Source: Patescibacteria group bacterium (GTDB lineage: Bacteria > Patescibacteriota > Microgenomatia > UM-FILTER-40-11). Taken from it: DNA of 64,000 nucleotides. Below, piece after piece: positions 25,969 to 47,368 of the stretch; the stretch's first letter is position 1; every line of letters starts with the position of its first letter. A program made the translations under genes and the position numbers. Location of the stretch: NCBI GenBank assembly GCA_035530075.1, contig DATKVM010000009.1, positions 1,718 to 65,717 on the forward strand, in the 5' to 3' direction. Under the pieces are notes generated by a model. It searched no databases, was not told the origin of the DNA, and saw nothing but the letters and a program-made list of their open reading frames with translations.

Positions 25969-26195
25969 AATTTGTTGTTATCCTCCTAAATTCGCTCTTC
26001 GAGCCGCAGTAGAAATCTACTAAGGCGAGAAGTAAGAATAGGAGGACGACCTATGCATCAAATTTCTCTTCACTTTTCAAAGTACATTTCCCTACTTTCG
26101 TAAGGGGTGGACCAGGGCGGTACTGACCCGCCTACCTTCTCATTGCAAATGAGACATTCTACCGTTGAACTACTGGCCCTCAACTTTATCTAAGC

Positions 26196-27309: not shown

Positions 27310-27383
27310 GGACGCATAGCTCAGTTGGTTAGAGCGCGTCTCTGATAAAGACGAGGTCCTTGGTTCGACTCCAAGTGCGTCCA
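27310..27383 (+). tRNA. tRNA-Ile (anticodon GAU)
   Basis: Cloverleaf: GGACGCA acceptor, D-arm TAGCTCAGTTGGTTAGAGC, anticodon loop CUGAUAA, T-arm GGTTCGACTCC. Plus strand, opposite to the rRNAs. No CCA is encoded. Confidence 0.85.
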
Positions 27384-27384
27384 C

Positions 27385-35157: not shown

Positions 35158-35895
35158 TTATTTACCGATATTGGTTTCTGATTGATGGCAGAAGACGACG
35201 CCTTTTTCCAAGAGGGCTTGCTTTTGCTGAGTAGAAAGGATGGTGGAAGCAGTAATGGGATGAAGCTGGCTTTTGTCAATCATTTTGCGCAAACTCTCTT
35301 CCTCCGGGTAATCCCAAGAAGTGACTCTCATCCCGACGCAAAGAGCATAGGCTCTTGCCTCTTGAGTAAGCTTAGTATTAGTTATTAGCCAAGGAATATC
35401 AAAACCCTTATTTTTAACATCTAAAAACCGAGCATAAGTATAGAGGGCAACTTTGACATCGGTCCGGCCTCCAACCTGTCCATGAAATTTACATTCAATC
35501 ATATAGGCCTTATCATTCTTGGCGATAATATCGATTTCATGGGCAACACATTTGCCCGTTACCAATTGGTTAATCTGCACCCGATAGTTTTGTACCTTTA
35601 AAACCTCAGCTACATATTTTTCAAAGGGATAGCCGGATGGCCCCAATTCCATAATGGCTCTTTTCAGATTATATTTTTCGGCCAAACCCCGCTGCTCTTT
35701 TTTTAGTCGCTTCATTACCAGGGCATAAATTTCAAAAGTGGGAATGTTTGGGTAAAGATGAGGCTTAACTTGGGAAACAATTTTTTGAGCCAATTCAGCC
35801 GATGCCCCTGCCCGCAAAAGTGAGTTAATTACTTTTTCTTCGGCAAATGGCTCTACTTCTCCCGTCGCTTTAATAACATCGACCGTTTTTCCCAT
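35158..35895 (-). CDS. ATP-cone domain fused to an Mrr/restriction-endonuclease-like (PD-(D/E)xK) domain
   Basis: N-terminal ATP-cone pattern VIKATGEVEPFAEEKVINSL. C-terminal EIDIIAK...ECKF resembles a D-ExK nuclease core. Confidence 0.55.
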   Translation of the reverse strand: MGKTVDVIKATGEVEPFAEEKVINSLLRAGASAELAQKIVSQVKPHLYPNIPTFEIYALVMKRLKKEQRGLAEKYNLKRAIMELGPSGYPFEKYVAEVLKVQNYRVQINQLVTGKCVAHEIDIIAKNDKAYMIECKFHGQVGGRTDVKVALYTYARFLDVKNKGFDIPWLITNTKLTQEARAYALCVGMRVTSWDYPEEESLRKMIDKSQLHPITASTILSTQQKQALLEKGVVFCHQSETNIGK

Positions 35896-37433: not shown

Positions 37434-37542
37434 TTAATTACAGGCTTTATCTTAACTAGCTTTTCAGCCCCTTGCTTGAGCGTTATCGGAGAAAAAACTG
37501 GGGAAACCTAGGCTTTCCTGAGGAACTTTCGCTTACTTATTC

Positions 37543-37572
37543 TTGACATATCTTATAAGTAGAAGTTATAAT
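37543..37572 (+). promoter_or_regulatory. Near-consensus sigma70 promoter (TTGACA-18-TATAAT) for regulator copy 1
   Basis: TTGACA at 37543-37548 and TATAAT at 37567-37572. The ORF-track TTG start at 37543 is actually the -35 box. Confidence 0.55.
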
Positions 37573-37599
37573 CCCATAGTTTCATGGAAAGTAAGATTT

Positions 37600-38862
37600 A
37601 TGACAAAAGTTTCCCGCCTTCTAACTGAAGAAACAGAAAAACATTTTTTTCAGGAAGTAATTCTTCCTAAGCTTCTGGCTGGTGAGAACCTTTCTATTCT
37701 TTGGACCCCCCATAGCGGCCGGCGGAAAACGATGACTTACCTAGTTAAAAACGCTGTCTTGTTGGGATTTAAGGCTTTAGGTCGCTACAAAATGGTTTAT
37801 GTCGACGGTGAAGAGTTAACCGAAGAAACTCCTCAGGCCTACTTTCGGCTTTTGCTCGGTTGCCTTGCCAAAAAAGAAATCGCCCCTTTATCAGCCGATT
37901 GCTTTCCCCTGCTTAAAAAAAAGGTTAAAGAAATAGTTGACAATGGTTATCATTTGGTTTTCATTTTAGGACGTTTTAATGAACTCAATTTACCTCGAAC
38001 TGTCTTTGATAATCTTAAAAACATTTGGCAGTTGGACAAACAGCAGATTCATTTTATCTTTGCCCTTAACAAGAACATCTTTAGCTCAGACAACTTCGAC
38101 AAGTATGGGCAGCTAAGAGAGCTTTTAACTCAAAACTTGATTTTCTTCCCCATTTTTGCCGAGAAAGATAATCAACTGGCAGCGGATTCTCTTTGTCAAA
38201 AGTACTGTTATCGGATTTCTCCCTCCCAAAAATCGGTGGCCAAAAAGATTGCTGGCGGGCATCCATCTTTATTAAAAGCCTGCTTGCGAATTCTAAGCAG
38301 CTCAGCCCATTTCTCTGCTAAAGAAACAGTCGATTTTTTCCTTAAACAATGGGAAATAAAAACTATTTTGCAGGATATTTGGAATTTCTTAGAATTAGAG
38401 GAAAGAAACTTTCTTGTCCAACTAGCACTGGAGGCGGAAACAAATCCAAAGAAAATTCCCGAAAAATTGTTAAGACTAAGACTAGTTTCCTTCGGAAAAA
38501 ACCAAAAGCTGGAATTTTTCTCTCCCCTTTTTAAGGCTTTCGTCATGAATCAAAAGTTGGATGCCCCGGCCATTGCCATTGAAGAGCAGACCGGCGAAAT
38601 CTTGGTCAACGGCTTGCCGCCGAGAGAAAAAATCGGTTTGCAAGAGTACCGACTCTTAGTCGAGTTTCTCAAAAACCCCGACAAAGTAATCTCCCGGGAC
38701 GAGATTGCTCTGGTCTTATGGGACAAGGAAGCGGATGAAAAGTATTCCGACTGGGCCATTGACCAGGTCATCTCGCAGCTTAGAACCAAATTAGAAAAAT
38801 TAGGCATTTCTTCCGCTAAATTACAAACCATTAGGAACCGCGGCTATCGTTGGACAGACTAA
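37600..38862 (+). CDS. Transcriptional regulator, copy 1: degenerate P-loop NTPase-like N-domain plus a C-terminal OmpR/PhoB-type winged helix
   Basis: C-terminus LQEYRLLVEFL...DQVISQLRTKLEKLG...LQTIRNRGYRW matches the trans_reg_C pattern. N-domain has PHSGRRKT (decayed Walker A) and hhhhLGRFNE (Walker-B-like). Likely start MTKVSRLL at 37600. Confidence 0.6.
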   Translation: MTKVSRLLTEETEKHFFQEVILPKLLAGENLSILWTPHSGRRKTMTYLVKNAVLLGFKALGRYKMVYVDGEELTEETPQAYFRLLLGCLAKKEIAPLSADCFPLLKKKVKEIVDNGYHLVFILGRFNELNLPRTVFDNLKNIWQLDKQQIHFIFALNKNIFSSDNFDKYGQLRELLTQNLIFFPIFAEKDNQLAADSLCQKYCYRISPSQKSVAKKIAGGHPSLLKACLRILSSSAHFSAKETVDFFLKQWEIKTILQDIWNFLELEERNFLVQLALEAETNPKKIPEKLLRLRLVSFGKNQKLEFFSPLFKAFVMNQKLDAPAIAIEEQTGEILVNGLPPREKIGLQEYRLLVEFLKNPDKVISRDEIALVLWDKEADEKYSDWAIDQVISQLRTKLEKLGISSAKLQTIRNRGYRWTD

Positions 38863-40394
38863 AGATTATGATTGAGCTCGAACAAAACATTTTCCCGTCC
38901 GTTATGGTGGCCCGGGAAGAGAAACCGACGGCCAGGGAAATCGATTATCAGAAACTTTTGGAAGCTAAAGGCCACGGCGAGCTTTCTCCCCTCCTTACTT
39001 GGGACGGTCTTTGGGAACTCTATCAAGAAACAGTCTTTTTTGGCCGACAAAATGCCTTTTATGATTTTCGTTGCAGCAAAAGAGAACTCTTCCATGGAGC
39101 CATGCTCCGATTCCTACCAGAAAGACTCCTTCCACCTATAAATTTAAGAAATAGAGCTAGAGAAGTGACTCGCGGTCCCGCCGGCAGAACTATTAACGCT
39201 CTTCATTCTTACCTTAGAGAAGAAAGGGCAAGGCATATTATTTGTATTACCCGGGGGGCGGCTCGCAGCATCGCCTACAAAGGCAAGCCATTCGCGAAAA
39301 ATTTAGTCGACCGATTCGGCAGTTTGACCCTGGGGAGAGGACACCTTTTGGACTTAGACGGCACCATTGGTTTTGCTCCCGGAACACCTCGGGAGCTAAC
39401 TGATTTTACTAATCTCGCCTCGGCGGTCCAGCCTCGACTTCACCGGCCGAGCGACCTGACTCTTGCCTGTGTCGCTTCTTGTTGGCGGGGAAAAACGGTC
39501 CAACGCTTAGAATATGGTACCGGTATTCCTAATTCCCTAACTTGGGACGACCGGGGCCATCTTTATTATCCCAGACACGAAGCGACTTACGACCCTTTCG
39601 GTAATCTTTTTATTCAAATGATGGAAGGCAGCGACCTTAACCGCTATATTTTCCCAGTTTGGCTCCCGAACGGAAGAATTGTTGGGGTGGAAGCGGATTT
39701 TTTATGGCAACATCGCCAGTGTCCGGCTATTCGCTTTGTTCAAAACGGCCAGGAAAGGACTTTACGATCGGCTATCAGCCATTGGGCCGGGAGAAATCTT
39801 AATCAGTTCGGAGAGATGTTTTTTGATATTCTGCATCACCTGGAAGAATGCTCCTGCGGCAATGCGGTTCCGGCTTTTGATTTTGAACCTAACGGAGCGG
39901 TTGACGCAAATCCTTTAACGGAAGAGGTGTTTTTTAATACCGGCAGGTGGATACAAAAAGAAGTTTTCCACCGCTTTGTCGAGAATGCCAATCGCTTAGC
40001 GCCAACCATCGAGATGAAAATTAAAATGGCACTTCATGCTTTTGGTTCAATAAAAAACACCATTGATGCCGACCCCTTAGTGGGAACCAATTTAGTCTGT
40101 TCACCTGAAGACTCTTTCATTCCCGAATCAATGGTTCACGGTACCGGCCTTTCCGAAGAAGTTTATCCCGAAGCCTACACCGCCTACCGGACCAATAAAG
40201 AAGAATTTGAGACAGAAGCCCGAAATTGTGATTGGGGTTTGGGAAGAGTCGGCTTCAAACGTTTTGCCCAAAAGCTGGAAGAAAAATTAGGCGGCCGAAA
40301 CAGCTTGGCTTTTGTTCTTACTCCCCTCCCTTTCCGCAATGAGGAAGCGGTTGTTAGCGCTATCCGGGCTAAATTGGATGAGATTCTTGGCTAA
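38850..40394 (+). CDS. Large hypothetical protein, partner of regulator copy 1 (GC/Arg-rich)
   Basis: 514-aa ORF overlapping the regulator stop by 13 nt, which suggests translational coupling. No recognisable motifs. Confidence 0.5.
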   Translation: MDRLKIMIELEQNIFPSVMVAREEKPTAREIDYQKLLEAKGHGELSPLLTWDGLWELYQETVFFGRQNAFYDFRCSKRELFHGAMLRFLPERLLPPINLRNRAREVTRGPAGRTINALHSYLREERARHIICITRGAARSIAYKGKPFAKNLVDRFGSLTLGRGHLLDLDGTIGFAPGTPRELTDFTNLASAVQPRLHRPSDLTLACVASCWRGKTVQRLEYGTGIPNSLTWDDRGHLYYPRHEATYDPFGNLFIQMMEGSDLNRYIFPVWLPNGRIVGVEADFLWQHRQCPAIRFVQNGQERTLRSAISHWAGRNLNQFGEMFFDILHHLEECSCGNAVPAFDFEPNGAVDANPLTEEVFFNTGRWIQKEVFHRFVENANRLAPTIEMKIKMALHAFGSIKNTIDADPLVGTNLVCSPEDSFIPESMVHGTGLSEEVYPEAYTAYRTNKEEFETEARNCDWGLGRVGFKRFAQKLEEKLGGRNSLAFVLTPLPFRNEEAVVSAIRAKLDEILG

Positions 40395-40734
40395 ATTAAA
40401 TCGGCAAGCCCAAAACTACCTTCAAATTCCCCAAGAGCAGGAGGAGGGCTTTCTTCCAAAGCTTGAAAAGCTGGAAAAGTAAATCCCAAGGTAAACGGAA
40501 ACCGCCCCCAATTACTTTCGGCTCAGTTGAATAATCCTCAAAAAGCCGAATTGCTTCCTTCCCTCGCCTGAGGGTTAGCGCCCGATTTTTGCGGCAAGAG
40601 GCGCTTTCCGAAGCATAAGTAATTTTGAGGTTAGCAAAAAGTAACCCCAAGCTCAAAGCAAAGAAATTAGTCCCACTTTTCCTCTGCATCCTGTCTCCTT
40701 TAATTGCTATTCTATGTAGCAATTCAGCAAGTTG

Positions 40735-40815
40735 CTTGAAATATTTCTGAAATATTCCTGAAATTCCTGATATACATTTGATGCGTATATAAGTTTTTGG
40801 TAAAATACGGATGTT
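40735..40815 (+). promoter_or_regulatory. Helically phased direct repeats (CTGAAATATT-like, three to four copies) plus an extended -10 (TGGTAAAAT) upstream of regulator copy 2
   Basis: TTGAAATATTTCTGAAATATTCCTGAAATTCCTGATATAC with a period of about 10-11 bp, then ...TTTTTGGTAAAATAC before the ATG at 40832. Confidence 0.4.
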
Positions 40816-40831
40816 GTAAGAAAAAATACCC

Positions 40832-42097
40832 ATGGTCAAAAAACAACAAATCGAGCATATCCTCACCCCCGAAACCGAAGAACTCTTCTTCAGAGACCAA
40901 ATTTTACCCCCTCTCTTGCGAGGAGAGAATGTAGTCCTCGTGAGAGTTCCTCATAGCGGGACAAAGAGAAACATCATGTTTTTAATCGAAAATTCCGCCT
41001 TCTTTGGTTATCAAGAACTGGGAAAGTATCAAATTGTTTACATAAACCCCTACGACCTCCCTAACAATAGCCCCGAGAGTTATCTTCGTTTAATGAGCTA
41101 TAACTTGAAAGACTACCCTCAAGATGAGACTAAAAGCGCTTTCTTCGCCCTCAAGGAGCAAGTCGAAAAACTTGCCAAGGAAAGCTTCTCTATCATATTC
41201 GTTCTTGCTGATTTTAATAAGTTCGACTATGCAAAGGCTTTCTTCAATAACCTCTACAGTCTTTATCAAATCGAGAAAACCAAAATACATTTTATCTTTG
41301 TCATAACTGAAAACATATTTTCTGAAGAAAAAATGGAGAAATATGATCAACTTACAGAACTTATTACCGAAAACATAATCTACATGCCTATTCTTTCTCT
41401 CAAAGACACTCTCTTCACTGTTAACCGGCTAATTAGCAAATATGGATATCAAGTTCCCCTTGTCCTTAAGAATGCAATTCCAGAGATAATTGGCGGTCAT
41501 CCAGCGTTAATCAGATCTTGTTTACGAATATTAAATGAAAAACAAAATATTAAAACCGAAGAGCTGTTGGACTTCCTGGAACAACAATGGGAAGTTAAAA
41601 CATTTCTGGACGACATTTGGAAGTCGATTACGGACGAAGAAAGAGCTTTCCTCTGGCACGCCGCAAAACAAGACCGCCCAGAATTAAAAGTCATCCCTAG
41701 TTTTATCAGAAATCTTGGTTTGGTCCATTTTGAAAAGGGCAAGCTATGCTTGTTTTCCCTACTGTTTGAGTCCTTTATCAAAAAGCAAAAAATTAAAAAA
41801 ACTACTCTAAGTATTTGCAGCCAAACGGGGGAACTTCTAGCAGATGGAATTGCACCAAGAGAAAAAATTACCTTAAGTGAACATCGCCTACTAACGGTAT
41901 TTTTAAAAAATCCAAATAAAGTTATTTCCAGGGATAGACTGGCCGAGGCTATTTGGGAAAAAGATTCATTTGAGAAATATTCTGACTGGGCAATGGACCA
42001 AAGCATCTCTTTGCTCAGGAAAAAATTAGATAGCCTAGGCGTCTCCCCCAACAGTATTCAAACCATTAAAGGATGGGGCTACCGCTGGATTGACTAA
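40832..42097 (+). CDS. Transcriptional regulator, copy 2: same architecture as the gene at 37600-38862
   Basis: Collinear similarity to copy 1: ...GENVVLVRVPHSGTKRN..., ...IGGHPALIRSCLRIL..., and C-terminal IQTIKGWGYRWID. Confidence 0.6.
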   Translation: MVKKQQIEHILTPETEELFFRDQILPPLLRGENVVLVRVPHSGTKRNIMFLIENSAFFGYQELGKYQIVYINPYDLPNNSPESYLRLMSYNLKDYPQDETKSAFFALKEQVEKLAKESFSIIFVLADFNKFDYAKAFFNNLYSLYQIEKTKIHFIFVITENIFSEEKMEKYDQLTELITENIIYMPILSLKDTLFTVNRLISKYGYQVPLVLKNAIPEIIGGHPALIRSCLRILNEKQNIKTEELLDFLEQQWEVKTFLDDIWKSITDEERAFLWHAAKQDRPELKVIPSFIRNLGLVHFEKGKLCLFSLLFESFIKKQKIKKTTLSICSQTGELLADGIAPREKITLSEHRLLTVFLKNPNKVISRDRLAEAIWEKDSFEKYSDWAMDQSISLLRKKLDSLGVSPNSIQTIKGWGYRWID

Positions 42098-42203
42098 AGA
42101 AAATTAATCCACTCCTAGTCCTTACAGTTTTCTTACTTTCTCTTAATTCCAACCTTACTTAAATCCCCTATCTTTGCGGGCATAGAAAGGAATTTTCGTT
42201 TCT

Positions 42204-43820
42204 GTGCCAAATATTACTGCTCAGCAAGAGGAAGGCTATAGAAATCTAGGAAAAAGGCTTTTAAAAGAAAGGGGACTATCTCGCTTGGTCAAACTCCTCA
42301 AGAAGGACAAAGAAAACGAATTCCTTAGAACCATTAAAGAATATGCTTTAAGAAAAAATGAGGATGGTCGAACACCTAAACCAAAACTCTTAAAAGAATA
42401 TCGAGCAAGATTAACCTTCATCCATTCTTCAAGATTTCCCGTAATCTCTGCATTAAACGAGAGTGGAAAGGTCAAGCTAACTCCTCTTGGAAAAATAGTT
42501 AAATCTTTATACGACTATCTAGAAAATAATAAAATCGATGGCTTTCTCTTCTTGATTTCTGGAGCAGCAAAAGAAACTATTGGGTTCAAATCAGAACTAA
42601 AATCCCGCGTAGGAAACAATAAAAATTTTGTATTTGATGATTTTAACCCAAAGATTGGCCCTCCAAAGATAGATGGTGATTTCATCTTAATCTTAAATAA
42701 TTCCAATATTACTGAAGAATTGATTGTCTCTGAACTAAAAAAAGAAATTGAAGATATTCCTCTTGAAATTAGAACTATTTCTTCCAATTCCAGACCATTT
42801 AAACGAATCGAGATAGGCACTGTATTCAACAAAGAAGTGCCACAAGATGAGTTTTGGGCTGATTATTGGCAAAGTTATGGACATATTGTTTCGCCGAAGT
42901 TCTCCGGAGGCCATTCATTTAATTTTTCGCTAATACAAAACTTGATGAATGATGATAATTCTTCGCCTTATGTCTTGATGGTCCCCACAAAAACTTCTGA
43001 AGAATTTATCGGTGTGAGAATTGATTTTTTTCCAGAAAGTAGACTTTACAAGGCAATCATTTATCCAAAAAATTCTCTTAACACCTGCTCATTGAAACCC
43101 ACAGTTATCAACTGGCCCGAGATTATGTTTCCTTTTAAAAATTCCGCTGCTGAGGCCCTGGCTATATTGATCCATCTTCTAAGGAATACCACCTGGGATG
43201 ATCGGCTTCCACTTATCTCCTCCTTGCCAAACACTCGACTTAGATCAATTTTGACCAAAAAATTTCAAGGAAGAATTCAAAAGATAAAGTCGATATCAGC
43301 AGACACTTCTCTATATTTTGCCCGAAAGATCGTTTATCCTACCGCCCTAAATATTAATCTGATCGCTGGAAATCCAATTTCTGTGAGACAATCGACTGAA
43401 AGACTTCTGAAATCAATAAAACCAATGCTTAATGGTAACCCTTATCTCGGCCTTATCTACCTTCTCTCTGCCGGAGAAAATCCAACAGATGCCCCGGTTT
43501 ATGGAACCGGCTTTATTGATCCCAAAGGTTTTTTCCCTGAACTTTATGAATTTTTTCATCAAGAAGATAGATTGGATAGGCTGATTAATCTGATGGCAAA
43601 AACCGAAGAAGGACCAGCCATGAAGGGCTGGCTGGCCTTTTTAAATTTTATCTATCGAGAAACCGGCTTTGACCTTAAAAAAACCGCCAAACTTCTAAAT
43701 CCTAATTTCTGCTCTCTTAAAGTTTATCCTAATTTAGTGAAAGATTTTATTTCTCCCGATTTGGAGAGTCATCCTGATTCTTTCCAGCCGATTTCCGCAA
43801 TTTCTGTAGCTTCCACATAA
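42204..43820 (+). CDS. Large hypothetical protein, partner of regulator copy 2 (AT/Lys/Asn-rich)
   Basis: 538-aa ORF with no recognisable motif. Not obviously similar to the 514-aa partner of copy 1. Confidence 0.5.
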   Translation: MPNITAQQEEGYRNLGKRLLKERGLSRLVKLLKKDKENEFLRTIKEYALRKNEDGRTPKPKLLKEYRARLTFIHSSRFPVISALNESGKVKLTPLGKIVKSLYDYLENNKIDGFLFLISGAAKETIGFKSELKSRVGNNKNFVFDDFNPKIGPPKIDGDFILILNNSNITEELIVSELKKEIEDIPLEIRTISSNSRPFKRIEIGTVFNKEVPQDEFWADYWQSYGHIVSPKFSGGHSFNFSLIQNLMNDDNSSPYVLMVPTKTSEEFIGVRIDFFPESRLYKAIIYPKNSLNTCSLKPTVINWPEIMFPFKNSAAEALAILIHLLRNTTWDDRLPLISSLPNTRLRSILTKKFQGRIQKIKSISADTSLYFARKIVYPTALNINLIAGNPISVRQSTERLLKSIKPMLNGNPYLGLIYLLSAGENPTDAPVYGTGFIDPKGFFPELYEFFHQEDRLDRLINLMAKTEEGPAMKGWLAFLNFIYRETGFDLKKTAKLLNPNFCSLKVYPNLVKDFISPDLESHPDSFQPISAISVAST

Positions 43821-44052
43821 ACAATCTTGCTTTACTCTTGGCTTTAGCATCTTTGACAAAGTAGCGGGCTTTTTCCAAAATTGGCCGGGGGACTTCTTTA
43901 GCTAGCTTGATATACAAGGCTTTATGGTCCGGGTCGCCCAGTTCCATGGCCAAATCGTAGCCGTATTTTTGGAACTCTCGGGAAACATATTTATCCCTCA
44001 AGGGATCAAATTTTTTTAAAATATCACCTAAGCTTTGAGGGGGGCTATTCAT
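43747..44052 (-). CDS. Small hypothetical basic protein
   Basis: 101 aa. Overlaps the 3' end of the plus-strand 538-aa gene (convergent overlap of 74 nt). Confidence 0.4.
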   Translation of the reverse strand: MNSPPQSLGDILKKFDPLRDKYVSREFQKYGYDLAMELGDPDHKALYIKLAKEVPRPILEKARYFVKDAKAKSKARLFMWKLQKLRKSAGKNQDDSPNREK

Positions 44053-46399: not shown

Positions 46400-47368
46400 C
46401 TAAGAGCGAAGAAATTCCGCCAGAGCAAACATGAGATAAAAAATAATTAAAACCAATCCCTCCCAACGGTCCAGTCTTCTTTTACTCCGGACAAAAAGGA
46501 AAAAGGAGCTAAAAACAATAAAAAAGGTCAAGGTGGCCAAAAGATATTCGTTAAAGGCAACGACTTCAATCGGACAAATCAAGGCGACAGTGCCAATAAC
46601 TAAGGTCGCATTAGTAACAATCGAGCCAAGAAGATTACCCAGGACCATTCCCGGTTGATGCTGTTTAACGGCTTCAATACCAAAGACCAATTCCGGCAAA
46701 GTGGTCCCGATGGAAATTAAAATTAAGCCAATTAAGAGGACGGGCACATTAATAAGAGTGGCTAAGCCAATAGAAGAGCGCACAATCATATCAGCCGAAA
46801 AAAGTAAAAGAGCCGCTCCCAAAAAAATCCAGCCGATTTCTCGTCTAGCCGAACGATGATTAAGCCGCCGAAGTAAACGTTGAACAAAACCCTCTTCGCC
46901 TAAGTCAATTTTTCCCTTTTCTCTTTCCCGAAAAACATTAACTTGGTAAAAACCGTAAAGAAGAAGAAGAATAAAACCGTCAATGCGAGAAAGACTCTTG
47001 TCCAGCAAAAGGAACAAGGGAGCCGAGCCGGTCAGGGCAGCATAAAGGATATTCTGGCTCAAAAGATTACCCTGAACAAAAATCGTCCCGCCAATTAAGG
47101 CCCCGCCACCAATGACTAAAGATAAATTGGCAATATTGGCCCCCAGAACATTCCCGAGAGAAAGGGCTGGAGTTTGCTTAAGAGCGGCAGTAATACCAAC
47201 AAAGTATTCCGGCAAAGAGGTCGCCAAAGCTAAAAGCAATTCGGTGACTGCAAACTTACCCAATCGGGTCCTGATTGCCAAGGCCTTAAGATTGATAATC
47301 AGAACATCGGTCGCTTTAATTAAAATAAAGGAGAAAAAAAGAATGACGACCAAATAAAACAAAATCAT
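46400..47368 (-). CDS. Na+/Ca2+ exchanger family (CaCA, YrbG-like) membrane protein
   Basis: Two alpha-repeat motifs: GNVLGANIANLSLV and GNLLGSIVTNATLV. Confidence 0.75.
   Translation of the reverse strand: MILFYLVVILFFSFILIKATDVLIINLKALAIRTRLGKFAVTELLLALATSLPEYFVGITAALKQTPALSLGNVLGANIANLSLVIGGGALIGGTIFVQGNLLSQNILYAALTGSAPLFLLLDKSLSRIDGFILLLLYGFYQVNVFREREKGKIDLGEEGFVQRLLRRLNHRSARREIGWIFLGAALLLFSADMIVRSSIGLATLINVPVLLIGLILISIGTTLPELVFGIEAVKQHQPGMVLGNLLGSIVTNATLVIGTVALICPIEVVAFNEYLLATLTFFIVFSSFFLFVRSKRRLDRWEGLVLIIFYLMFALAEFLRS

Follow-up and report, generated by a model that had tools for sequence, protein, structure and literature searches.

A duplicated two-gene cassette of Patescibacteria pairs a STAND-like, OmpR-type regulator with a predicted nucleotidyltransferase

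The window analyzed here is a 64,000-nucleotide stretch of contig DATKVM010000009.1 from a Patescibacteria group bacterium. Between positions 37543 and 43820 it contains two consecutive copies of a two-gene cassette, each composed of a regulator gene (A1 or A2) and a gene for a large protein (B1 or B2). All four genes are intact open reading frames (ORFs) on the plus strand (Table 1). A1 and A2 align end to end with 42% identity over 418 amino acids (aa) (E 9e-123). B1 and B2 are also homologous, with 21% identity over 449 aa (E 9e-12), and belong to one alignable family with 17 invariant columns. The homology of B1 and B2 indicates that the whole two-gene unit was duplicated, and not the regulator alone. 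A preliminary description of this DNA had placed the four ORFs at these positions, recognized the regulators as collinear paralogs and proposed a tandem duplication of a two-gene cassette, all of which is borne out; its view of the large ORFs as unrelated, divergent effectors has to be abandoned, as they are diverged paralogs. A and B are two uncharacterized families, so far labeled in databases as "winged helix-turn-helix domain-containing protein" and "hypothetical protein", in a conserved and hypervariable pairing that is specific to a subset of candidate phyla radiation (CPR) bacteria.

The A1 stop codon (38860–38862) overlaps B1 if translation of B1 starts at the TTG, or precedes the ATG by 5 nucleotides. 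A2 and B2 are separated by a gap of 106 nucleotides, in which no terminator is predicted. B1 has a GC content of 0.477 and is rich in arginine (44 Arg, 18 Lys), whereas B2 has a GC content of 0.367 (0.315 at third codon positions) and is rich in lysine (27 Arg, 47 Lys); the mean GC content of the window is 0.441. Both the tight juxtaposition of A1 and B1 and this contrast in composition had been pointed out beforehand. Exact or close copies of A1, B1, A2 and B2 are present in further assemblies labeled Patescibacteria, and the B1 homologs P0001–P0004 come from Patescibacteria throughout.

Table 1. Features of the cassette locus, followed by neighboring genes in the window.
Feature	Position	Strand	Description
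Phased units CTGGG, CTAGG, CTGAG	37498–37522	+	10-nucleotide period; candidate operator for the winged helix of A, ~20 nucleotides upstream of the A1 -35 hexamer
A1 promoter, TTGACA-18-TATAAT	37543–37572	+	Promoter scan; 12/12 hexamer matches
A1, regulator	37600–38862	+	420 aa from ATG; the open frame opens at 37543, the -35 hexamer of the promoter
A1 OmpR-type winged helix	38641–38850	+	Residues 348–417; Pfam
B1, predicted nucleotidyltransferase	38850–40394	+	514 aa, B family; TTG start, alternative start ATG 38868
B1 motif GAARS	39255–39269	+	Family alignment
B1 motif DLD	39351–39359	+	Family alignment
B1 motif RLEYG	39504–39518	+	Third carboxylate; family alignment
Small conserved ORF	40396–40689	-	97 aa; convergent to B1, divergent from A2
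Perfect palindrome AATTGCTA-N7-TAGCAATT	40702–40724		Divergent control region; TAGAAT -10-like hexamer on the minus strand
Phased direct repeats TTGAAATATT, CTGAAATATT, CTGAAATT, CTGATATAC	40736–40775	+	Start-to-start 11, 11 and 9 nucleotides; abut the A2 -35 hexamer; candidate A-binding sites
A2 promoter-like element, TTGATG-17-TAAAAT	40778–40806	+	TG extension; promoter scan
A2, regulator	40832–42097	+	421 aa; paralog of A1
A2 OmpR-type winged helix	41867–42085	+	Residues 346–418; Pfam
B2, predicted nucleotidyltransferase	42204–43820	+	538 aa, B family
B2 motif GAAKE	42561–42575	+	Family alignment
B2 motif D157-G-D159	42672–42680	+	Family alignment
B2 motif RIEIG	42804–42818	+	Contains E203; family alignment
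Convergent gene	43747–44052	-	101 aa; overlaps the B2 3' end by 74 nucleotides
tRNA-Ala	26106–26179	-	3' CCA not encoded; acceptor stem followed by ACCC
tRNA-Ile	27310–27384	+	3' CCA not encoded; acceptor stem followed by ACTT
ATP-cone/Mrr_cat gene	35158–35895	-	ATP-cone domain (PF03477, E 1.4e-8) fused to a restriction-endonuclease-like Mrr_cat domain (PF04471, E 8e-8)
Na/Ca-exchanger-like gene	46400–47368	-	

The C-terminal domain of both regulators is an OmpR-type winged helix (Trans_reg_C, PF00486; E 1.5e-13 for A1 and 2e-16 for A2) that matches the DNA-binding domains of ToxR, PhoB and BaeR in the PDB. The proteins terminate with this domain, at residue 420 in A1 and 421 in A2. Response-regulator models of NCBIfam cover the C-terminal ~75 residues only, and a Pfam search for a receiver domain gave no Response_reg match at E<=1. 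The AlphaFold model of A2, calculated with 28 homologs as input, has a predicted local distance difference test (pLDDT) score of 89.6. Its N-terminal ~320 residues are predicted to adopt an AAA+/STAND-like fold with a nucleotide-binding subdomain (NBD), a helical subdomain and a winged-helix subdomain. The fold of A1 is taken from the model of its paralog. Neither Pfam matches nor the A2 model revealed a C-terminal repeat-type sensor (TPR, WD40 or LRR) or a further domain, and no BTAD domain was matched in Pfam, the DNA-binding domain being C-terminal.

The nucleotide-binding motifs of A are degenerate. The P-loop reads PHSGRRKT in A1 and PHSGTKRN in A2 and departs from the canonical Walker A sequence GxxxxGK[ST]. 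The consensus is P-H-G-G-x-R in A and P-x-x-G-[RK]-R in a wider family of 140 relatives, and the Walker A lysine is not conserved. At the Walker B position, A1 has FILGRFNEL and A2 has FVLADFNKF; neither conforms to hhhhD[DE], the acidic pair is missing in both, and the wider family, with hhhhL[GN][ED]F[DE]E, keeps the acidic residues in part. Both proteins also contain a GGHP(A/S)L motif. It appears in the wider family as GG[HY]P, with the two glycines present in 111 and 119, the histidine in 84 and the proline in 69 of the 140 sequences, and from what is known of NB-ARC motifs we take it to be the GxP motif of the STAND helical domain. On the basis of its motifs, the P-loop is probably non-hydrolyzing. 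Because a basic residue is retained, it could still bind a phosphate-bearing ligand.

Similarity of A to the AAA_35 family (PF14516) is weak. A2 scores 17.8 bits, below the gathering cut-off of 27 bits, over residues 196–315 only, and 7 of 28 A relatives give weak matches at E<0.01 (best 6.4e-7). The preliminary description had seen in each regulator a C-terminal trans_reg_C-type winged helix, a decayed Walker A and an AAA/STAND-like domain rather than a receiver, and the Pfam and PDB matches, the family alignment and the A2 model agree with it on these points. The Walker-B-like hhhhD strand that it also proposed holds for A2 (VLAD) and fails for A1 (ILGR), at a position that is not conserved. 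Judged from the model, the view of A as a STAND/AAA+-like domain with a degenerate P-loop, followed by an OmpR-type winged helix, is essentially right, and "STAND-like" is a better label than pseudo-NTPase sensor.

Searches of B1 and B2 against Pfam, NCBIfam and PADLOC gave no matches, and phmmer and profile searches against PDB sequences gave nothing meaningful (no profile match at E<=10). The family alignment has the shape of a Pol-beta nucleotidyltransferase signature, in which G-x-A-[RK]-E is followed ~35 residues on by DxD. Residues are given in B2 numbering. Among 58 members, the four specified positions of G120-x-A-[RK]-[ED] are conserved in 97%, 83%, 62% (36/58) and 79% (46/58), and D157, D159, S194, R197 and D/E203 in 98%, 100%, 93%, 93% and 79%, respectively. 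B1 retains G120, D157, D159, S194, R197 and the acidic residue at 203, with its motifs reading GAARS, DLD and RLEYG, and according to the alignment the catalytic carboxylates of the family are intact. For B, this signature overturns the earlier statement that none of the four proteins has a recognizable functional motif.

The structure model of B (pLDDT 88.1, predicted template modeling score 0.88) shows a Pol-beta catalytic head and a helical neck/body, as in the class II fold. Its best structural matches are CCA-adding, A-adding and poly(A) enzymes; among them is the A-adding enzyme of Aquifex, part of a split CC/A system. In an hhalign comparison with four class II head and neck sequences (CCA-adding enzymes and poly(A) polymerases, retrieved with an E. 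coli Cca query), ISGAAKE of B falls on VGGAVRD and DGD on DRD, at a probability of 2% that is not significant and serves to set the register only. B is predicted to be an active nucleotidyltransferase with a fold closest to the CCA-adding and poly(A) enzymes, outside their sequence family. In addition, B possesses an N-terminal three-helix extension, added β strands, and the conserved motifs S-x-x-R-P-F, NGDP and YGTG. Certain members carry C-terminal winged helices of TrmB, MarR or RNase R type, and certain members carry N-terminal extensions of ~500 aa. No membrane or secretion signals are visible in the B sequences. The family is very rare, being represented by 51 clusters (50% identity) in a set of 1.84 billion representative proteins. 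Comparison of B2 with viral structures (BFVD) by Foldseek gave nothing significant.

Both A genes are preceded by promoter elements and phased direct repeats. The A1 promoter, described at first as near-consensus, is in fact perfect. Its two hexamers are kept upstream of the A1 orthologs in four relatives (L001, L003, L008 and L013), and the region of the three phased units is conserved upstream of the same orthologs. The region upstream of A2 consists, in order, of the promoter, the four repeats, the palindrome, and the start of the divergent 97-aa gene. Elements resembling the A2 promoter are found upstream of A2 in L003 and of A420 in L008. The block of repeats and palindrome is conserved in L003 and L013; a related block precedes A418 of L001 and A412 of L008, and in L001 the palindrome lies directly upstream of A418. 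The preliminary description had noted phased repeats before A2 and an OmpR-like box layout fitting auto- or cross-regulation. Four units are indeed present and the local phased layout recurs at other loci, but the single 10-mer CTGAAATATT is not enriched across the window (10 matches, 8.0 expected). The meaningful signal is the local phased arrangement together with its recurrence, not the single 10-mer.

The recurrence is seen in the tandem motif CTGAR-N3-6-CTGAR. In the 150 nucleotides upstream of A genes at loci with B, it occurs 3.23 times per kb (20 hits within 6.2 kb, without exception on the strand of A). The density is 0.53 per kb before A genes that have no B, 0.64 per kb before B genes, among them the convergent ones of L005 and L114, and 0.04 per kb elsewhere (79 hits in 1.78 Mb). 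The enrichment upstream of A in independent loci is real and amounts to about 80-fold over background, a loose figure, and it agrees with the box layout proposed earlier. At least three phased YYNAG units lie upstream of 11 of 18 close A genes, compared with 1.8% of random windows. The CTGAR signal also recurs in lineages with A proteins of only 30% identity. The phased repeats fit head-to-tail binding of OmpR-type winged helices, and their position suggests autoregulation.

The comparison with A418 of L001 raised the possibility that the block upstream of A2 belongs solely to the small gene on the minus strand. This was set aside in view of the CTGAR tandems, which lie on the A strand family-wide; the block is therefore treated as a shared divergent control region. 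The 97-aa ORF has orthologs in L003 (~90% identity; 91% by MAFFT and 89.7% gene by gene), L001 (39%) and L008 (34%), with 15 invariant residues in common, and no match in a Pfam scan. It starts just past the block of palindrome and repeats and so may be served by the same A-controlled region.

Conservation of the pair across gene neighborhoods, which had been named beforehand as a test, was assessed for 31 distinct close A genes (family hidden Markov model (HMM) E<=1e-120, at least 1.5 kb of downstream sequence). B or C adjoins 29 of them: B is co-directional in 15 cases and convergent in 6, and C is the neighbor in 8. The pairing is thus kept in related CPR genomes, and the loss of pairing that had been set beforehand as a refutation is not seen. 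C denotes a protein of ~250 aa with a G-x-G-x-R sugar-nucleotidyltransferase signature, and weak matches to NTP_transf_3 and to the nucleoside-diphosphate-sugar pyrophosphorylase of PDB entry 4evw (E 0.027). The number of cassettes per locus ranges from 1 to 6. The syntenic relative L003 has two cassettes and the same flanking genes as the window. L001 and L008 have a hotspot of five to six cassettes beside the ATP-cone/Mrr-like gene, with the arrangements A-B, A-C and A-C-B; in one case A precedes a genuine NTP_transferase gene (PF00483, E 1e-42). One C gene, of 255 aa, overlaps the start of a B gene. The pairing is also present in L010 and in L012; the single A gene of L012 precedes a B gene whose protein ends in winged helices. 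In L001 (12051–21521) and L008 (1–16400), A genes are each followed by a ~250-aa protein that starts with MIWxIPIxGKGxRT.

The pair is found in a subset of Patescibacteria (CPR), mostly of Microgenomates type. In Roizmanbacteria-type genomes, A is ~30% identical and convergent to a protein of 745–1065 aa, with adjacent or overlapping 3' ends. The C-terminal part of this protein is a B domain; for the 1065-aa neighbor, hhalign gives a probability of 98.6% (E 7e-16). More distant homologs of A occur widely in Microgenomates, in Dojkabacteria and in CPR groups related to them. Those of middle distance (~456 aa, L017–L053) nearly always have a gene of 557–822 aa next to them, either co-directional or convergent with overlapping ends; examples are L020 9418–11421, L021 9327–11567 and L027 9315–11582. 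These large partners show no similarity to B by HMM or hhalign and were rejected as members of the B family. They belong to no Pfam family, with two weak CTP_transf_like matches (E 0.016 and 0.036), and may be another partner family of A. Some contigs with A-family genes and typical CPR neighbors are labeled Gammaproteobacteria, Clostridia or Bathyarchaeia, probably from mis-assigned taxonomy of metagenome-assembled genomes.

The cassettes diverge between relatives in a mosaic manner. Relative to the close relative L003, the flanking proteins are mostly 82–89% identical, A1 95.2% and the 97-aa ORF 89.7%, while B1, A2 and B2 are 41.6%, 47.5% and 55.7% identical. Relative to the more distant L001, the flanks are 57–70% identical, A1 47.0%, A2 41.9%, B2 35.8% and the 97-aa ORF 39.2%; B1, at 74.3%, is more similar than the genome backbone. 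DNA similarity to L003 ends exactly at the A1/B1 junction and returns at the B1 stop codon. It ends again inside A2 (~41061) and returns inside B2 (~43305). By the evidence of these alignments, the mosaic divergence is allele replacement by recombination. The cassette-like variability suspected from the single locus is thus apparent as 1–6 copies and as alleles replaced between close relatives. Together with the atypical GC content of B2, allele replacement and copy-number variation point to diversifying or frequency-dependent selection on the enzymes. A1 is nearly invariant while B1 is exchanged, which counts against tight protein-protein co-evolution in cassette 1 and favors a relationship between regulator and promoter.

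Among known regulators, A appears functionally most like activators of the SARP/AfsR or MalT type. AfsR, a large SARP of Streptomyces, contains an OmpR-type winged helix, a BTAD domain, a STAND NOD and TPRs and, like A, combines an OmpR-type winged helix with a STAND module in one factor. The direct repeats bound by SARP regulators lie beside -10/-35 elements and have a spacing of 11 or 22 bp (PMC10936776). Direct repeats one helical turn (11 bp) apart next to a promoter resemble the 9–11 bp repeats that abut the -35 element here. In contrast to AfsR, A has the reversed domain order, with the winged helix at the C terminus, no BTAD domain, no TPR and only ~420 aa; its P-loop lacks GK[ST], its Walker B acids are not conserved, and its family is confined to CPR bacteria. 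MalT, GutR and LAL-type regulators are non-immune STAND transcription activators (PMC13581612). They possess a LuxR-type helix-turn-helix, a large sensor and a functional ATP site; the winged helix of A is of OmpR type, its P-loop is decayed, and a sensor is missing. MalT multimerizes when driven by its inducer and then binds repeated asymmetric boxes. On domain order, BTAD, sensor repeats, helix-turn-helix type and Walker motifs, A falls outside both groups. Like OmpR/PhoB response regulators, A has Trans_reg_C, but it lacks their REC domain with its phospho-acceptor aspartate. Relative to Arch_ATPase/AAA_35 (PF01637/PF14516) and Orc1/Cdc6-type AAA+ proteins, A stays below the gathering score, adds an OmpR-type domain and has lost the canonical Walker motifs.

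The systems closest to B are the class II tRNA nucleotidyltransferases, bacterial poly(A) polymerase (PF01743) and TENT5/FAM46. B shares the head and neck/body fold, motif A and the third carboxylate with the class II enzymes, but not membership of PF01743 by sequence or motifs B and D. B also differs in an insertion of ~35 residues between the glycine motif and DxD, and in its hypervariable, multi-copy genes. AbiE and MenAT are likewise two-gene modules, in which a DNA-binding winged-helix protein, probably autoregulating, is followed by a nucleotidyltransferase of Pol-beta fold. MenT toxins target tRNA 3' ends (PMC7450476). DUF1814 and AbiEi-type domains were not found in A or B, and the resemblance is one of outline only. 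The cGAS/DncV-like nucleotidyltransferase of CBASS has no counterpart in B. A literature search for AAA_35/PF14516, for a combination of STAND, Trans_reg_C and nucleotidyltransferase, and for CCA-adding enzymes in an anti-phage role returned nothing relevant.

These features are best explained by an autoregulated operon, a reading to which we assign a probability of roughly 0.6. The cassette would encode a small STAND factor with an OmpR-type domain that controls itself and a nucleotidyltransferase acting on RNA 3' ends or nucleotides, and the array would hold alternative enzymes. A would bind head to tail to the phased CTGAR-type direct repeats, with a period of 9–11 bp, at its own promoter, and would thereby control its own transcription. 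It would also control the co-transcribed or neighboring B gene, and perhaps the divergent small gene. B would be the enzymatic output, a cytoplasmic nucleotidyltransferase of the Pol-beta superfamily. Its most likely activity is the addition of nucleotides to the 3' end of an RNA, whether tRNA-like or not, or else the synthesis of a nucleotide product. The locus behaves as an expandable, recombining cassette array in which B-type partners and NTP-transferase-like partners of ~250 aa alternate.

Several observations weigh against the operon reading. A has no obvious sensor domain. B has no sequence match to PF01743 (no Pfam match at E<=1) or to any PDB chain, and the alignment with the class II head and neck stays at the insignificant probability given above. 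The class II motifs B (RRD) and D (EDxxR) are not among the B columns with at least 80% conservation; because their equivalents are not conserved, the substrate is not readable from the sequence. A and B are convergent in one sub-clade, and co-transcription is therefore not the general link between them. B is adjacent in only 1 of 96 more distant A homologs, many of which have a different large partner instead. The CTGAR and YYNAG patterns were chosen after inspection of the sequences and several of the loci are related, so that the effective sample is perhaps ~10 lineages.

A less probable, rather doubtful explanation is that the cassettes are toxin-antitoxin or abortive infection modules of the AbiE/MenAT kind, with B as a growth-arresting modifier of tRNA 3' ends, A as an autoregulating neutralizer or trigger sensor, and the array as an immune repertoire. 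The gene of a winged-helix protein precedes, in close coupling, that of a Pol-beta nucleotidyltransferase whose fold is closest to enzymes that bind the tRNA acceptor end, and MenT/AbiEii toxins are nucleotidyltransferases acting on tRNA acceptor stems (PMC7450476, PMC10435456). STAND NTPases are common as immune sensors (PMC13581612), and such a repertoire would be in keeping with the hypervariability of the locus, the alleles exchanged between lineages, the variable copy number and the atypical GC content of B2. However, the proteins match no AbiE, MenT, DUF1814 or CBASS model in PADLOC, Pfam or NCBIfam, B has no significant viral structural match, and the surroundings are housekeeping synteny (trxB, trx and pth; ileS and ftsZ in Roizmanbacteria) rather than a defense island. 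A1 is conserved at 95% while an allele of only 42% identity has taken the place of B1, with the break exactly between the two genes, which argues against a co-evolving protein-protein antitoxin pair. An unlikely and bolder extension of the operon reading regards A and B as a self-contained, CPR-specific signaling or immune circuit of an undescribed kind. The product of B, a nucleotide or a tailed RNA, would be read by the remodeled, non-hydrolyzing P-loop pocket of A and transcription switched through the CTGAR repeats, with arrays of swapped enzyme alleles and alternative nucleotidyltransferase folds as a diversifying repertoire, similar to a defense island but made up of couples of regulator and enzyme.

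An essential enzyme is not expected at 42–56% identity where the flanks are 82–95% identical, or in copy numbers that vary from 1 to at least 3 per locus. It is accordingly improbable that B1 and B2 are strongly diverged versions of the bacterium's own tRNA nucleotidyltransferases, such as a split CC-/A-adding pair, or a poly(A) polymerase, in a housekeeping role with dedicated regulators. The rarity of the family in spite of abundant CPR genomes, the lack of conservation of class II motifs B and D, and the extra winged-helix domains of certain members also speak against this role. In its favor, the top structural matches are CCA-adding, A-adding and poly(A) enzymes, the Aquifex A-adding enzyme among them; the tRNA genes in the window lack an encoded 3' CCA, so that the organism depends on a CCA-adding activity; a regular-expression search found no canonical GGxVRD...DxD ORF in the window or the relatives' loci, which cover a small part of each genome; and the Roizmanbacteria B gene lies among core genes. 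Control of activated precursors for envelope or surface glycan decoration, with the partners as nucleotidylyl- or phospho-transferases comparable to LicC/LicD or ISPD/FKRP, is very improbable. Variation would here mean surface diversity for an episymbiont or evasion of phages. Most A genes in L001 and L008 are followed by the C protein with its weak sugar-nucleotidyltransferase matches and one by a bona fide NTP_transferase, and the C gene overlapping a B start suggests a two-step pathway; yet the neighboring genes of the window include none for a glycosyltransferase, flippase or polymerase, B proteins have no visible membrane or secretion signals, and the winged helices fused to certain B proteins point to nucleic acid. 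That the locus is no functional unit, its similarity, adjacency and repeats being due to chance or decaying duplicates, could be argued from the degenerate P-loop and the unenriched 10-mer. This is refuted by four intact ORFs with homologs in several assemblies, the E-values of both paralogies, high-confidence models of A and B, conserved catalytic residues in B, the pairing in 29 of 31 cases and the enriched cis-motif.

If the operon reading is correct, the pairing offers a concrete circuit of operator motif, regulator and enzyme in CPR bacteria, which are almost without characterized transcription factors. The A family is predicted to comprise minimal, STAND-like transcription factors in which a decayed P-loop goes with an output domain of OmpR type, and the B family is a very rare, deeply diverged branch of nucleotidyltransferases resembling the CCA-adding enzymes and poly(A) polymerases. 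Should B tail tRNA or other RNA, or make a signaling nucleotide, it would be a new enzyme class for RNA 3'-end biology or nucleotide signaling. Sharp allele replacement and copy variation in genomes of ~1 Mb suggest unusual selection, and make the cassettes candidates for a function that faces host, phage or environment.

The cassette locus is embedded in conserved housekeeping synteny that includes trxB, trx and pth. As to the defense or surface-variation role suggested in the preliminary description, PADLOC gave no match at the locus, and no known defense genes were found among the neighboring genes. The ATP-cone/Mrr_cat gene marks the left border of the cassette hotspot in L001, L003, L008 and L013. 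The 101-aa gene at the 3' end of B2 is 77–87% identical in L003, L012 and L013 and lies near A-family genes in six loci; its one match is a weak one to FadR_C (E 0.016). In L008 (3161–8203), genes for apparently secreted or surface proteins occur within the array, including a Cys-rich protein of 681 aa and one of 487 aa that has a signal-like segment at its N terminus. In L010 (10754–13331), two genes with a PPDK_N domain and a dCTP-deaminase-like gene lie downstream of the B homolog P0067 (891 aa, C-terminal winged helices). The A homolog of L010 is divergent, and a 526-aa gene lies between A and B; this gene was considered as B-like and rejected on comparison. A second variable spot is present near the cassettes. 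The Na/Ca-exchanger-like gene is 39% identical to its positional counterpart in L003, where adjacent genes are 81–84% identical, and L003 carries an extra gene of 418 aa (PF27218) beside it.

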